Made by a program: the position numbers and the translations under genes
Shown: positions 33,224 through 60,755 of the stretch, one piece after another
How positions within the stretch are numbered: position 1 is the first letter of the stretch
How the letters are laid out: each line of letters starts with the position of its first letter
Notes under the pieces: model-generated
Databases searched by the model: none
What the model saw: only the letters and a program-made list of their open reading frames with translations
What the model was told of the DNA's origin: nothing
NCBI GenBank assembly: GCA_904387305.1
Contig: CAJFLB010000011.1
Coordinates: 10,156-74,155 of the forward strand
DNA: 64,000 nucleotides
DNA from: an uncultured Clostridia bacterium
GTDB lineage: Bacteria; Bacillota; Clostridia; TANB77; CAG-508
Direction: 5' to 3'

Positions 33224-33344
33224 AATATAAATCCTCCATTCATGCAATATTTAAAATTGCTTAATATTTATTTTTAATTATATATAAATTTATCTCTAAC
33301 TTATCAAAGAAAGAGATTGTTGGAATTAAAGGTATGCAAATAAA

Positions 33345-33495
33345 ACCTATATGTATTGACCTTTGTTACAGTATTGCTACTGCTCTTTAATCAATACTTA
33401 TGACCATAAGTGAAAGCCATCAGAGCATCCGCCGAATCTTTCGATAACTCTGAACCTCGTCAACACCCTCAAAAGAGTGTCCAGGCGCTATATAT
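33345..33495 (-). promoter_or_regulatory. glmS ribozyme (GlcN6P-dependent self-cleaving leader)
   Basis: The minus strand reads AUAUAUAGCGCCUGGACACUCUUUUGAGGGUGUUGACGAGGUUCAGAGUUAUCGAAAGAUUCGGCGGAUGCUCUGAUGG. This contains the conserved AGCGCC, GACGAGG, AUCGAA and UUCGGCGGAUGC blocks, directly upstream of glmS. Confidence 0.85.
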
Positions 33496-33626
33496 GAACG
33501 AAATATTGCCCTCCTTTCAAAATATTTTCTTGCATACTTTTAATTTACTGTTATTATATTACACTAAAATGGAAAAATAAGCAAGTCCTGGTTAAAAAAT
33601 TTTATTTTTCCAAAAAAGTATCAAAC

Positions 33627-58320: not shown

Positions 58321-58349
58321 TTGACAACTAAATAAAAATAGTTTATACT
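58321..58349 (+). promoter_or_regulatory. sigma-A promoter for the tRNA pair
   Basis: TTGACA (58321-26), 17-nt spacer, TATACT (58344-49). Confidence 0.55.
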
Positions 58350-58370: not shown

Positions 58371-58447
58371 GCTCCCTTAGCTCAGTTGGTCAGAGCAACC
58401 GGCTCATAACCGGTGGGTCCAAGGTTCGAATCCTTGAGGGAGCACCA
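58371..58447 (+). tRNA. tRNA with a CAU anticodon (elongator type; acceptor stem resembles lysidine-modified tRNA-Ile2, otherwise tRNA-Met)
   Basis: Cloverleaf: acceptor GCUCCCU/AGGGAGC, D stem GCUC/GAGC, anticodon stem ACCGG/CCGGU with loop CUCAUAA, T stem CAAGG/CCUUG, encoded CCA. It lacks initiator features. C4 and C5 match Ile2-like acceptor stems. Confidence 0.85.
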
Positions 58448-58457
58448 TTATACATAT

Positions 58458-58772
58458 GGGTAGGTGGCCGAGTGGCTAAAGGCGGCAGACTGTGGTCTTT
58501 GGTTAATCAAAACCTAAACTTGCAGCTCATATAAGTGATTATATGATGAACACCGGGCTAATTCGGGGAACTCTTAACAGTTAGGCTGATGACAATCCCG
58601 AGCTAGGAAAGAAATTTCCGAGTGTAGAGACTTTATACCTGGTATCTTGAAAAAGATAAAGAGAAAGTCCAGACTACAAACATAATATATTTGGTTATGG
58701 TAGTGAAAACTATAGTAGTAAGAAATCTGTTCTCATTTGAGTACGAAGGTTCGAATCCTTCCCTGCCCACCA
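58458..58772 (+). tRNA. tRNA-Tyr(GUA) interrupted by a group I intron in the anticodon loop (exons 58458..58493 and 58723..58772)
   Basis: Joined exons give acceptor GGGUAGG/CCUGCCC, a long D loop AGUGGCUAAA, anticodon stem GCAGA/UCUGU with loop CU-GUA-AA, a long variable arm (CUCA-UU-UGAG), T arm GAAGG-UUCGAAU-CCUUC, discriminator A and CCA. Confidence 0.8.
58494..58722 (+). mobile_element. group I intron (229 nt, ORF-less), inserted between U35 and A36 of tRNA-Tyr
   Basis: The 5' exon ends in U and the intron ends in G. Core elements: P UAAUUCGGGGAAC (58559-71), Q AAUCCCGAGC (58594-603), R GUCCAGACUACAA (58667-79), S AACUAUAGUAGUAAG (58708-22). P4 pairs CGGG/CCCG; P7 pairs ACUAC/GUAGU. Confidence 0.75.
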
Positions 58773-58773
58773 T

Positions 58774-58803
58774 AAAATACAAGGAAACTTGTATTTTATT
58801 TTT
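58774..58803 (+). terminator. rho-independent terminator after the tRNA pair
   Basis: aaaatacaag-gaaa-cttgtatttt plus a T-run. Confidence 0.75.
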
Positions 58804-58846
58804 ATATAAAAAACAAACAAATGTTTTAAAAGAAAGGAAAGAGCCT

Positions 58847-59230
58847 ATGAATTTTGATACTAATAAAGAAAAAGGAAATTCGGGTTTAGGAATGGCAATA
58901 GCATATTTTACAACAAAAGGATATACGGTATCAATACCATTAAATGATACACAGGATTATGACTTAGTAATCGAAAAATGTAATAAATTATATACAGTGC
59001 AAGTAAAAGCAACAGGATGTAAAACAAAATATAATGTATATCAAGTAGCTTTAAAAAGCTGTGGCGGAACAAAAGGAAAGGAATATAAAACAGTAGTAAA
59101 CACAAATGTAGATTATATATTTATATTAGATGCTGAGCAAAAAATGTATTTAATTCCAAGGATAGAAATTGTAAATAAAAGTACAATTAATTTGGGGAAA
59201 AGAATGGAAACATATAGAGTGAATATTTAA
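58847..59230 (+). CDS. PD-(D/E)XK endonuclease (group I intron-associated, I-Ssp6803I-like family), free-standing
   Basis: MNFDTNKEKGNSGLGMAIAYFTTKGYTVSIPLNDTQDYDLVIEKCNKLYTVQVKATG carries D ... D/E-x-K spacing (DYDLVIE ... VQVK). ATG at 58847 after RBS AAAGGAAAGAG. The upstream part of track ORF 58691.. overlaps the tRNA exon and is spurious. Confidence 0.55.
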   Translation: MNFDTNKEKGNSGLGMAIAYFTTKGYTVSIPLNDTQDYDLVIEKCNKLYTVQVKATGCKTKYNVYQVALKSCGGTKGKEYKTVVNTNVDYIFILDAEQKMYLIPRIEIVNKSTINLGKRMETYRVNI

Positions 59231-59288
59231 AATATGGGAAGTAATTAATTATGAAGACATCTTTGATGAATTTGGCAAAAAATATGAC

Positions 59289-59708
59289 TTATAGCATATG
59301 CCATAAGTCATCAAAATCGTTCTTATCAATAATCTTCAAATCAAATGCTAATTGAATTTGATCTCTTCTTTTTTCATCATCATTGATATTTTGTAAGTAA
59401 TTTAATACCGCTTCTTTTCCACCTATATTAGAATAAATTTCTTGCATTTCTTCATTAGAGAATTTTCTTTTTTCATTAGTATGTCTATCTACCATAGTAA
59501 AACTTTTAGATAATTCATTATACATTGCAAGTTTAATCATTCGGTCATTTTCATTTTCTACTTCGCTTGTAAGAATTTTTACTGCTTGTTCCAAGTTTTC
59601 TACTTGCATAGGAGTTCTATATGTTTTATAAGCCATAAAAACACCAAATGAAACAGCCACTATTATAAGTATGATTAAAATAATTATTAGAATTTTAGTT
59701 TTGTTCAT
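59289..59708 (-). CDS. membrane-anchored hypothetical protein (139 aa)
   Basis: N-terminal TM ILIIILIILIIVAVSFGVFMA. Last gene of a three-gene minus-strand operon. Confidence 0.5.
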   Translation of the reverse strand: MNKTKILIIILIILIIVAVSFGVFMAYKTYRTPMQVENLEQAVKILTSEVENENDRMIKLAMYNELSKSFTMVDRHTNEKRKFSNEEMQEIYSNIGGKEAVLNYLQNINDDEKRRDQIQLAFDLKIIDKNDFDDLWHML

Positions 59709-60006
59709 TTTTATTTTCTCCTTTCATATTTTCTAATTTTTCATTTAACTTTTTTATCATATATTTATCATATTTATGAACTATAATTGCTATCAATAGG
59801 AAAAATATTGTATATACTCCGACATACCAAGGAAGAAAATAAAACAAATTATGAGGAATCATTTGTAATTCTAACAAAGGTATAATAGTATTATCTGTTA
59901 AAAGTGAAAACAATGTTATATGGATAATATAAGAAATTATTGTAAATAGTATTAAACCCACTATATAATAAATACTCAAGTTAAAAATTAATTTTCTTTT
60001 CTTCAT
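59695..60006 (-). CDS. small polytopic membrane protein (DUF3021-like partner of the LytTR protein)
   Basis: Two or three TM helices. Overlaps the downstream gene and abuts the LytTR gene. Confidence 0.45.
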   Translation of the reverse strand: MKKRKLIFNLSIYYIVGLILFTIISYIIHITLFSLLTDNTIIPLLELQMIPHNLFYFLPWYVGVYTIFFLLIAIIVHKYDKYMIKKLNEKLENMKGENKNEQN

Positions 60007-60008
60007 AA

Positions 60009-60473
60009 TTATATCATCCTTTCTTCTAAAATTTTCATAATTTGTCTAGTCCTTCTTCTTGAAACAACTTCTTCTGTTGAATCATCCAACTTGACAATTA
60101 TTCTTCCAACTTCACTTATATCAAATTTATCTATATGTTTGATATTTACAATGCAGCTTTTTGATATTCTTATAAAATTATTATCCATATTCTCTAACTC
60201 ATATAATTTACTTTTTATCTTATATGTTTCATTTTTAGTCCTACAATAATTAGACTTTTTATCACTATAAAATGCAACAATATCTATATATTTTATTTCT
60301 ATTAAATTATAATTTTTATCTGTTACTATTACTTTATCATGATTGAATTCATAATTGTTTAAGTATTCAATAAAATCGTATAAATCTTGATTATTATTTG
60401 AAAACTGTATTTCTATTATGACTTTGTCATTTTCTAAACTATTATTTATTTTTTTTACAATCTCAAATTTCAT
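60009..60473 (-). CDS. LytTR-family DNA-binding protein (no receiver domain)
   Basis: IKYIDIVAFYSDKKSNYCRT ... FIRISKSCIVNIKHIDKFD is a LytTR domain. Confidence 0.75.
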   Translation of the reverse strand: MKFEIVKKINNSLENDKVIIEIQFSNNNQDLYDFIEYLNNYEFNHDKVIVTDKNYNLIEIKYIDIVAFYSDKKSNYCRTKNETYKIKSKLYELENMDNNFIRISKSCIVNIKHIDKFDISEVGRIIVKLDDSTEEVVSRRRTRQIMKILEERMI

Positions 60474-60755
60474 AATTGTATATGTTACACAGTTTTAAAG
60501 CTGTAACAATATACCTCCTTTCATTATTTTTATCCATACTTTATTTCTGAAAAGATTATAAAACATACATTTTTAATTGACAATATTTATACTATAAGAG
60601 GCTTAATAAAATGATAAACGGCTTAAATAGAGTAAAAGTTTCAAACTAACAAAAAATAGAAACAAATGGAAACCAAAAACAGTAAAGAATTATTGAAATA
60701 AAAAAGAGTATATGATACCATTAACTTAAAGTAATCATAAAAGGAGTAAAAGGGT

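Follow-up and report, generated by a model that had tools for sequence, protein, structure and literature searches.

A tRNA-Tyr gene split by a compact group I intron, and an adjacent I-Ssp6803I family endonuclease gene, in uncultured gut Clostridia

The tRNA-Tyr locus and its intron

The DNA examined here (the window) is a 64-kilobase (kb) stretch of contig CAJFLB010000011.1 from an uncultured Clostridia bacterium. At positions 58458–58772 it contains a gene for tRNA-Tyr(GUA) that is interrupted by a 229-nucleotide (nt) group I intron. Window coordinates are on the plus strand unless noted otherwise. The 5′ exon (58458–58493) consists of the 5′ strand of the acceptor stem, the D arm, the 5′ strand of the anticodon stem and the loop nucleotides C32, U33, G34 and U35. 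The 3′ exon (58723–58772) begins with A36, A37 and A38 and continues with the 3′ strand of the anticodon stem, the variable arm, the T arm, the 3′ strand of the acceptor stem, A73 and CCA. The intron between them (58494–58722) has no open reading frame (ORF) and ends in the terminal omega G at 58722. It is identified by the Rfam group I intron model RF00028 (Intron_gpI), by a structure common to 114 homologues, by RNAalifold, and by comparison with orthologous loci from which it is cleanly missing.

ARAGORN calls an 86-nt tRNA-Tyr(GTA) from the joined exons and, when introns are allowed, calls tRNA-Tyr i(37,229) from the raw region. The joined sequence displays a 7-base-pair (bp) acceptor stem (GGGTAGG/CCTGCCC), an anticodon loop CTGTAAA, a long variable arm, a discriminator A and an encoded CCA. 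These are the features of the tRNA-Tyr class, i.e. a type II cloverleaf with anticodon GUA, a long variable arm and A73.

The joined-exon pattern GGCTAAAGGCGGCAGACTGTAAATCTGTTCTC was used to scan metagenome contigs and gave at least 120 loci; the counts from this and the two other collection scans are lower bounds. Many of the matches represent intron-less versions of this chromosomal locus, with the order AMP-binding gene, 283-amino acid (aa) gene, tRNA-Met and tRNA-Tyr, and in these the tRNA-Tyr is an ordinary gene. With the intron-less loci L295, L359 and L268 (related loci are designated by L and a number), the alignment to the window reaches position 58493 and restarts at 58723, and the subject coordinates are adjacent. 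Thus the inserted segment is exactly 58494–58722. The insertion point is between U35 and A36, with a U before the 5′ splice site and a G at the end of the intron, both of which are required for group I splicing.

An earlier note on this DNA had joined the same exons into a type II tRNA-Tyr(GUA), had placed a 229-nt intron between U35 and A36, and had described the host as a low-GC Firmicute. The ARAGORN call on the joined exons agrees with the first point and the boundaries of the intron-less orthologous alleles agree with the second. The third is in keeping with the 27.4% G+C of the window and with its relatives, which are metagenome-assembled genomes (MAGs) of uncultured Clostridia.

Structure of the intron

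The group I structure was mapped on the window and then counted on 114 distinct homologues (alignment A2). Standard base pairs are found in 96.6% of the cells, compared with 36%–42% when the 3′ partners are slid by 1–3 columns. Both sides have changed at 51 of 94 pairs (12–26 in the slid controls), the covariation score is 0.224 (0.060 or less in the slid controls), and none of 500 column shuffles matched the observed pairing or covariation. RNAalifold, without a supplied structure, recovered the acceptor, D, anticodon and T stems of the tRNA together with P1, P1a, P2, P3, P4, P5, P6a, P8, P9a and P9b of the intron. The minimum-energy fold of the intron alone gives a modest z value of −2.1, as expected for a pseudoknotted A+U-rich RNA.

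Covariation supports the group I fold in P1a, P2, P3, P5, P6, P8 and P9, and the alignment to RF00028 positions R, S, P3, P4 and P6. The two core domains, P4–P6 and P3–P8, are both supported by covariation, with P7 uninformative in this respect as it was fixed by the search pattern.

P1 (58490–58525) is formed by exon CUGU and intron GG (58490–58495) with the internal guide UUGCAG (58520–58525), and places a U58493·G58522 wobble at the 5′ splice site, as is usual for P1 of group I introns. The U-A, G-C and U·G pairs of P1 are retained in 114 of 114 homologues. The guide GCAG (58522–58525), which the earlier note had offered only as a candidate for pairing with exon CUGU, is thus the one that is kept. 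An extension hairpin within P1, P1a (58498–58504 with 58511–58518), shows GC/AU/CG/UA exchanges. By reading, the guide nucleotides UU (58520–58521) could re-pair with AA of the 3′ exon (58723–58724) as P10.

P2 (58528–58534 with 58539–58545) is a 7-bp hairpin with the GNRA loop GUGA; both sides have changed at all seven pairs, and the G and A of the loop are invariant. P3 pairs ACCGGG (58552–58557) with CCUGGU (58638–58643), was also found by RNAalifold, and has both-side changes at four of six pairs. P4 (58562–58568 with 58596–58602) lies in the region of the P and Q elements and encloses the AA of J4/5; it is invariant in the 114 sequences and was not fixed by the search pattern. It also encloses P5 (58571–58573 with 58591–58593), where one pair alternates between U-A and C-G in 27 sequences, and P5a (58578–58580 with 58586–58588). 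The P6/P6a hairpin (58603–58622) has a GAAA loop and both-side changes at five of seven pairs, e.g. G-C to A-U in 52 sequences.

The RF00028 alignment and the structure map locate the R element, GUGUAGAGACU, at 58622–58632. It comprises J6/7 and the 5′ strand of P7, i.e. G58627 and GACU (58629–58632), with A58628 bulged. The S element, AAGAGAAAGUCC, is located in the same way at 58659–58670 and comprises J8/7 and the 3′ strand of P7, AGUCC (58666–58670). P7 is therefore G(A)GACU/AGUCC and forms a pseudoknot with P3; the R and S elements and the bulged A align with the RF00028 consensus. P8 is the hairpin AUCUU-GAAA-AAGAU (58644–58648 with 58653–58657), with both-side changes at three of five pairs and a loop of varying length.

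P9 (58673–58677 with 58715–58719), ACUAC/GUAGU, is a closing helix around P9a and P9b; one of its U-A pairs is C-G in L193 and one is U·G in 12 sequences. P9a (58681–58685 with 58695–58699) has both-side changes at all five pairs. P9b (58700–58704 with 58709–58713) has them at four of five and carries an invariant GAAA loop. The intron then ends with AA and the omega G58722, which is invariant in the 114 sequences and whose place is fixed by the intron-less alleles.

The reading of the core in the earlier note stands in part. Its P element, AAUUCGGGGAAC, and Q element, AAUCCCGAGC, are as it gave them, and its splice-site rules (U before the 5′ site, terminal G) fit the invariance of the U·G pair and of the terminal G. 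The sequence it took for R, GUCCAGACUACA, is the tail of S with the 5′ strand of P9, and the sequence it took for S, ACUAUAGUAGU, consists of the 3′ strands of P9b and P9. Its P7, ACUAC/GUAGU, is a genuine helix, as the U-A to C-G exchange in L193 shows, but this helix is P9 and lies 3′ of the true P7.

The architecture is compact, with a GNRA loop on P2, the invariant GAAA loop on P9b and a conserved P5/P5a internal loop, UCUUAAC...GAUGA. The catalytic core would form from P3–P8 and P4–P6 with P7 as the pseudoknot, and the P9b GAAA loop and the P2 GNRA loop probably dock on the P5/P5a internal loop and P8. By resemblance, the intron may be assigned to the compact tRNA-intron type known as subgroup IC3.

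Distribution and phylogenetic conservation

A pattern of the R and S elements only was too general: on viral contigs it found introns in many other tRNAs. The exon sequence GACTGT was therefore added for the genome scan, in which one genome per species was searched with GACTGT, N110–140, GTGTAGAGACT, N15–45, AAGAGAAAGTCC. This gave at least 119 loci. Among the 119 matches listed, 110 are tRNA-Tyr(GTA) genes with a 214–238-nt intron at the same position, so that the intron is present in at least 110 species-level genomes. The identity of the listed introns to that of the window is 58%–99%, with a median of 83%.

The 80 loci with titles (L134–L213) come nearly all from uncultured gut Clostridia, e.g. 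Clostridium sp. CAG:567, CAG:575 and CAG:354. MAGs labelled Bacilli, Erysipelotrichaceae or Mycoplasma have a second type that diverges more, and the introns of the Clostridia-type and Bacilli-type tRNA-Tyr genes are 58%–62% identical. A further set of loci (L001–L013) was reached by way of the downstream ORF. These show tRNA-Met followed by tRNA-Tyr, with a 221–229-nt intron at the same site, wherever the upstream DNA is present.

The cloverleaf formed by the exons is perfect across the at least 110 species, with compensatory changes in the acceptor stem (five of seven pairs) and in the D, variable and T stems. This argues that a functional tRNA is being selected for even though the gene holds the intron.

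In reviews, group I introns of bacterial tRNA genes are listed for cyanobacteria and for alpha- and beta-proteobacteria only (PMC4033280). Searches of the open-access full-text literature turned up no such intron in tRNA-Tyr of bacteria or in any tRNA gene of Bacillota, which is not proof of absence. The earlier note had called the insertion unusual. This holds for the literature; in nature the intron is common, and its apparent rarity is thus an annotation artefact. What is new is the isotype (Tyr), the insertion position (35/36), the phylum (Bacillota), and a free-standing endonuclease gene in place of an intron-encoded endonuclease of the I-Ssp6803I type. The known range of bacterial tRNA introns is widened accordingly in isotype, insertion position and phylum. 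The introns also constitute a compact ribozyme family of 214–238 nt with many natural variants, which may serve work on structure and folding.

Detection by standard programs

With default settings ARAGORN reports only a tRNA-Met(CAU) at 58371–58447 in the whole 64-kb window and misses the tRNA-Tyr gene. A search of Rfam at gathering thresholds likewise gives nothing at 58458–58772, while it finds the upstream tRNA and a glmS ribozyme. (The glmS ribozyme, at 33343–33500 on the minus strand, is a full-length match of 87.6 bits.) The earlier note had warned that the gene could escape annotation, and both programs do miss it. The paper on tRNAscan-SE 2.0 mentions the fMet and Ile2 cases and says that detection of such introns was not among the aims of the program's design (PMC8450103).

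Because the gene is missed by tRNA finders and by Rfam at its curated threshold, MAGs and genomes of a large group of gut Clostridia and Bacilli will seem to have no tRNA-Tyr gene, and estimates of genome completeness and inferences on codon usage may be distorted.

Expression and splicing of the split gene

The tRNA-Met(CAU) gene upstream of the tRNA-Tyr gene (58371–58447; ARAGORN; 73.3 bits with the Rfam tRNA model) is present in all intron-bearing loci of the L001–L013 set that reach that far and in most intron-less loci. It is preceded by a promoter-like site, TTGACA, 17 nt, TATACT, at 58321–58349 (11 of 12 matches in a consensus scan). The same scan found no further promoter-like site on the plus strand before 59205. 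The tRNA-Tyr gene is probably transcribed jointly with tRNA-Met from this candidate promoter.

Beyond the tRNA-Tyr gene, at 58774–58803, an A+U-rich hairpin, AAAAUACAAG-GAAA-CUUGUAUUUU, is followed by a run of U. It was found by reading and is kept whether or not an allele has the endonuclease gene described below. This hairpin is likely to act as a weak terminator of the tRNA operon. A terminator scan made no call here because the stem has fewer than three G-C pairs.

The gene appears to be in use and its intron to be self-splicing, which we infer from sequence conservation. The case is strong because the exons are compensated, the core and the splice-site pairs are kept, and an intron-less allele occurs at the same locus. 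In splicing, an external guanosine would attack after U58493, the guide UU would then pair with exon AA (P10), and the freed exon would attack after G58722 and so restore the anticodon loop CUGUAAA.

Some results weigh against this account. In E-value mode RF00028 matches 58490–58695 with 36.2 bits (E = 1.3e-7 on 601 nt), which is below the gathering score of 50; 17 homologous tRNA-Tyr introns were tested as well, and all fall short of that score. The earlier note had regarded the lack of an RF00028 match as evidence against an intron; at the curated 50-bit threshold a match is indeed lacking, and below it the match is present. An intron in a tRNA-Met gene of a Nitrospira MAG (L145) scored 58.5 bits in the same run. 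As the shortfall is common to the 17 relatives while the Nitrospira intron passes, we read it as a limit in the sensitivity of the model for a short A+U-rich subfamily and not as counting against the fold. Furthermore, R, S, P7 and the exon sequence GACTGT were fixed by the genome search pattern, and their invariance is consequently without weight. The analysis covered the 64-kb window and stretches of up to 15 kb at the related loci, a scope that bears on whether these genomes have a second tRNA-Tyr gene.

In an alternative reading the tRNA-Tyr gene is dead, the insertion no longer splices and another gene supplies tRNA-Tyr. The low RF00028 score, the restriction of the tRNA search to 64 kb and the indirect evidence for splicing all leave room for it. 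It is nevertheless very improbable. Exons and intron are under strong purifying selection, with compensatory changes in at least 110 species, and the splice-site U·G pair and the terminal G are invariant. In addition, sister strains carry an intron-less allele at the same locus, which shows this to be the regular tRNA-Tyr locus.

The downstream endonuclease gene

An ORF at 58847–59230 can encode a free-standing PD-(D/E)XK endonuclease of 127 aa. Its sequence matches Pfam PF11645 (PDDEXK_5) with 60.5 bits (cut-off 26.1), and PF11645 is the I-Ssp6803I family (PMC3424549). A profile made from 13 homologues gave PDB entry 2OST as the only match (E = 4.4e-5), and in a Foldseek search the two top hits were 2OST chains (probability 1.00, TM score 0.46), obtained from a low-confidence AlphaFold model. 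No NCBIfam family matched the endonuclease. There are more than 2000 homologues, the best 120 of which are 67%–92% identical.

The ORF begins 74 nt past the tRNA and 125 nt past the 3′ end of the intron, which itself has no ORF. The predicted enzyme is thus a relative of the I-Ssp6803I family and not an intron-encoded member.

The gene is separated from the tRNA-Tyr hairpin by a spacer element (58806–58846) that is also conserved in alleles lacking the gene. The spacer contains an inverted repeat, which is CGAACAAAAGTTCG in relatives (the spacers of L183, L279 and L345 were compared) and AAACAAATGTTT at 58815–58826 of the window. The endonuclease cassette starts directly after this repeat.

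The endonuclease gene is strongly associated with the intron. Among the listed loci with enough downstream DNA, a copy is found beside 51 of 99 intron-bearing and 3 of 98 intron-less tRNA-Tyr genes (Fisher p = 1e-15). For intact copies the numbers are 41 of 99 and 1 of 98 (p = 1.3e-13). Beside intron-bearing genes it is usually located 50–110 nt after the tRNA. Decayed copies are seen as well: two of the three intron-less loci (L342 and L326) have N-terminal remnants only, and L196 and L246 show internal deletions.

Intron and endonuclease gene are separate insertions. A comparison of L183 with L279 and L323 (~87% identical) shows the 223-nt intron and a 481-nt endonuclease cassette as two clean indels, separated by the 3′ exon and a conserved spacer of ~60 nt. 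The indels, the internal deletions and the remnants form the pattern that would be expected of a homing cycle.

Homologues of the endonuclease with 43%–59% identity also occur on viral contigs (L253–L265, match at 2501–2880 in each), where they are free-standing genes in phage tRNA arrays. In eight of these contigs the homologue is just before tRNA-Ser(GCU).

One phage contig, L255, displays a tRNA-Tyr gene (2341–2932) that is split in its anticodon loop by ~500 nt without a group I core. The insert contains a degenerate tRNA-Tyr-like sequence (2379–2463), a TATAAT box and an endonuclease ORF. The stop codon of the ORF overlaps CTGTAA of the 3′ half, and CTGTA is present at both junctions. This cassette is within one base of the insertion site of the tRNA-Tyr intron, which favours an anticodon-loop target for the enzyme.

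Gain and loss of the intron

The presence of the intron was compared with a neighbour-joining tree built from the 283-aa protein encoded in the flank of 62 loci, 31 intron-bearing and 31 intron-less. At least 13 changes between presence and absence are needed, against a mean of 20.9 for random labels. One pair of loci illustrates how recent such a change can be. L183 (Clostridium sp. CAG:354_28_25), which has the intron, and L284, an intron-less contig from human gut, match with 98.7% identity along 3144 nt, and the match stops exactly at the 5′ splice site. The patchy tree and the near-identical flanks show that the intron has been gained or lost often and recently. It should be noted that MAGs may be chimeric.

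A different history is that of an old, vertically inherited and now immobile intron whose patchiness reflects repeated precise losses and in which the endonuclease has no role. The tRNA-Leu intron of cyanobacteria and plastids has been proposed to be of this kind. The upstream synteny of AMP-binding gene, 283-aa gene and tRNA-Met, which is common to the intron-bearing loci, would accord with it, as would the absence of the endonuclease from half of the carriers. The 58%–62% identity between the introns of Clostridia-type and Bacilli-type tRNA-Tyr genes also suggests age. On the other hand, the 62-tip tree demands 13 or more changes of state, a number near the 21 expected at random. Strains whose flanks are 98.7% identical can have or lack the intron, and this history gives no explanation for its association with the endonuclease (p ~1e-15). 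We consider such a history improbable.

Instead, spread of the intron among strains would most likely be driven by the free-standing endonuclease gene at 58847–59230. The enzyme would cut intron-less tRNA-Tyr in or near the anticodon-loop DNA, and repair would copy the intron and the endonuclease gene together, i.e. trans or collaborative homing. Such a pair should consist of an intron without an ORF and a neighbouring free-standing endonuclease gene, the two being present or absent jointly, and both the co-occurrence and the clean indels are of this form. The recognition site of the enzyme would span the point where the intron is inserted, and the intron would in this way make its carrier immune.

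This proposal must be set against several observations. An endonuclease gene is missing from about half of the intron-bearing loci. In L345 a copy that seems intact lies beside an intron-less tRNA-Tyr gene with an identical anticodon arm. In phage contig L256 a homologue follows tRNA-Met and an intron-less tRNA-Tyr, and in L258 one is located 7 nt before an intron-less tRNA-Tyr. The last three cases are awkward if the enzyme cuts the intron-less tRNA-Tyr site. Also, the association test compares species representatives (intron-bearing) with metagenome contigs (intron-less), and the AlphaFold model of the endonuclease has a pLDDT of only 68.

The same cases lend some appeal to another scheme, in which the intron splices and the endonuclease gene is selfish in its own right: the enzyme would cut at or near the place where its gene is inserted in the spacer (intronless homing), and the intron, 125–350 bp away, would be co-converted. 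The 481-nt cassette is discrete and comes right after the conserved spacer repeat CGAACAAAAGTTCG, which occurs whether or not an allele has the endonuclease and might itself serve as the target. The intact gene of L345, next to an intron-less tRNA-Tyr, would then be no anomaly, and neither would the homologues in L256 and L258 or the free-standing ones that adjoin other tRNAs, e.g. tRNA-Ser(GCU), in phage tRNA arrays. Free-standing endonucleases that move in this manner are established (PMC3984707). Yet hitch-hiking of the intron predicts a weaker asymmetry than is seen, intact genes being ~40 times commoner beside intron-bearing alleles. The repeat is intact in endonuclease-positive alleles, so a carrier is not obviously protected by the insertion. 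Moreover, the sole characterised member of the family targets the anticodon region of a tRNA (PMC3424549, PMC3984707), and the L255 cassette sits in the anticodon loop of tRNA-Tyr. We therefore rate this scheme as rather unlikely.

Collaborative homing is thus put forward tentatively. That the intron and the endonuclease gene are a chromosomal collaborative pair in uncultured gut Clostridia and Bacilli, with a candidate enzyme that would cut the anticodon-loop DNA of intron-less tRNA-Tyr, is a possibility to which we give slightly less than even weight. The account as a whole, i.e. a working split tRNA-Tyr gene that is co-transcribed with tRNA-Met and from which the intron is presumably spliced, with trans homing as its proposed mode of spread, we consider highly probable.

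If the pair is real, it would represent a living intermediate toward composite mobile introns such as that of the Synechocystis tRNA-fMet gene. All stages of the homing cycle (intron with endonuclease, decayed endonuclease, intron alone, neither) would be present across more than 100 species, and the same endonuclease family would also move tRNA genes in phage tRNA arrays. The natural series of near-identical flanks, discrete or decayed cassettes and remnants lets the cooperation of ribozyme and endonuclease, and the origin of composite introns, be tested.

Comparison with known systems

The Azoarcus tRNA-Ile and Anabaena tRNA-Leu introns exemplify subgroup IC3. The tRNA-Tyr intron resembles the compact bacterial tRNA introns, i.e. 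those of Azoarcus tRNA-Ile(CAU), Agrobacterium tRNA-Arg(CCU) and cyanobacterial or plastid tRNA-Leu(UAA), in its length of ~200–250 nt, in having no ORF and in its location in the anticodon loop. As in these, P1 uses anticodon-loop bases beside the anticodon stem, GNRA/GAAA loops are found on P2 and P9, and there is no P5abc extension. The core strings AAUUCGG.GAA, AAUCC..GAGC, GUGUAGAGACU and AAGAGA.AGUCC are also shared.

There are differences as well. The host is tRNA-Tyr(GUA), a type II tRNA, and the RF00028 score is below the gathering threshold. The insertion is at 35/36; in the tRNA-Leu introns it lies at 34/35, and in those of tRNA-Ile and tRNA-Arg it follows the anticodon on the 3′ side. 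The host phylum is Bacillota and not cyanobacteria or alpha- or beta-proteobacteria as in the reviews (PMC4033280).

The combination of an anticodon-loop group I intron with a small PD-(D/E)XK endonuclease recalls the tRNA-fMet intron of Synechocystis PCC 6803, in which the endonuclease I-Ssp6803I (PDB 2OST) is encoded. The D...QVK motif region of the two proteins can be aligned, and they belong to the same Pfam family (PMC3424549). Unlike I-Ssp6803I, the gene described here is outside both intron and tRNA, 74 nt downstream behind a hairpin. Its product is 127 aa long as against 150 aa, with ~25% identity, the tRNA is Tyr and not fMet, and its activity and target are putative.

Collaborative (trans) homing, in which an ORF-less intron is served by a free-standing endonuclease whose cleavage site is the point of intron insertion, is described for two phage systems, including the psbA gene of cyanophage S-PM2 with F-CphI (Zeng et al. 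2009 and Bonocora and Shub 2009, reviewed in PMC3984707). As in these, intron and endonuclease gene are separate indels that tend to co-occur. Here, by contrast, the setting is a bacterial chromosome and a tRNA gene, and the endonuclease target is a proposed one. The enzyme is of the PD-(D/E)XK type and not of the Endo VII type like F-CphI (PMC6083498).

A further comparison is with SegB of phage T4, a GIY-YIG homing endonuclease whose free-standing gene lies within the tRNA gene cluster of that phage. The homologues of the window enzyme in phage tRNA arrays are likewise free-standing endonuclease genes among tRNA genes, but the nuclease fold differs and the SegB case involves no intron (SegB is mentioned in PMC13096335).

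Flanking genes

The order AMP-binding gene, 283-aa gene and tRNA-Met upstream is common to the intron-bearing loci. The 283-aa protein has no meaningful Pfam match.

Downstream of the endonuclease gene, positions 59231–60632 contain three minus-strand ORFs, including a LytTR-domain protein (60009–60473). The closest relative, L150, does not have these three ORFs; after its endonuclease gene the sequence resumes at window position 60633. L011 carries unrelated genes at this place (TnpV, HTH and YhcG-like). Because of this differing gene content, the 3′ flank of the tRNA-Tyr gene can be described as a variable region.

Other introns found in the scans

On viral contigs (L014–L133), tRNA genes of many isotypes in phage tRNA arrays are split by group I introns whose R/S core is the same. 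Among the matches listed, ARAGORN with introns allowed (option -i) gives ~20 tRNA-Arg(UCU) and ~19 tRNA-Leu(UAA), then Phe, Thr, Asn, Lys and Ser. Examples are L083 (5698–5960 and 7694–7887), L038 (12982–13172 and 13592–13790), L023 (5435–5632), L025, L027 and L028. In tests of 14 loci, nine phage-array introns were above the RF00028 gathering score. A BLAST search of the locus against annotated phage records gave only short exon or core matches. According to a 2014 review, all phage introns then known were in protein-coding genes (PMC3984707).

Two tRNA-Tyr calls in phage contigs, L073 (3674–4332, minus strand) and L117 (2148–2809, minus strand), were rejected as ARAGORN miscalls; the exons read as tRNA-Thr(UGU). 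Their introns are ~580 nt long and of the same family, and each has an HNH-type ORF of 138 aa in the region of P5.

Some phage arrays with split tRNAs also have ROOL RNA (305.7 bits), transfer-messenger RNA or abiF RNA motifs beside them: L117 (3256–3875, minus strand), L073 (5530–5937, minus strand), and L025, L027 and L028 by a split tRNA-Arg.

Outside the phage arrays, introns of 192–199 nt (i38) were found in tRNA-Asn(GUU) genes of L195 (a Burkholderiaceae MAG), L219 and L249, and the Nitrospira MAG L145 has its intron in tRNA-Met(CAU). ARAGORN also called a putative "tRNA-Stop(tta) i40" in L155 (a Burkholderiaceae MAG) and L214.

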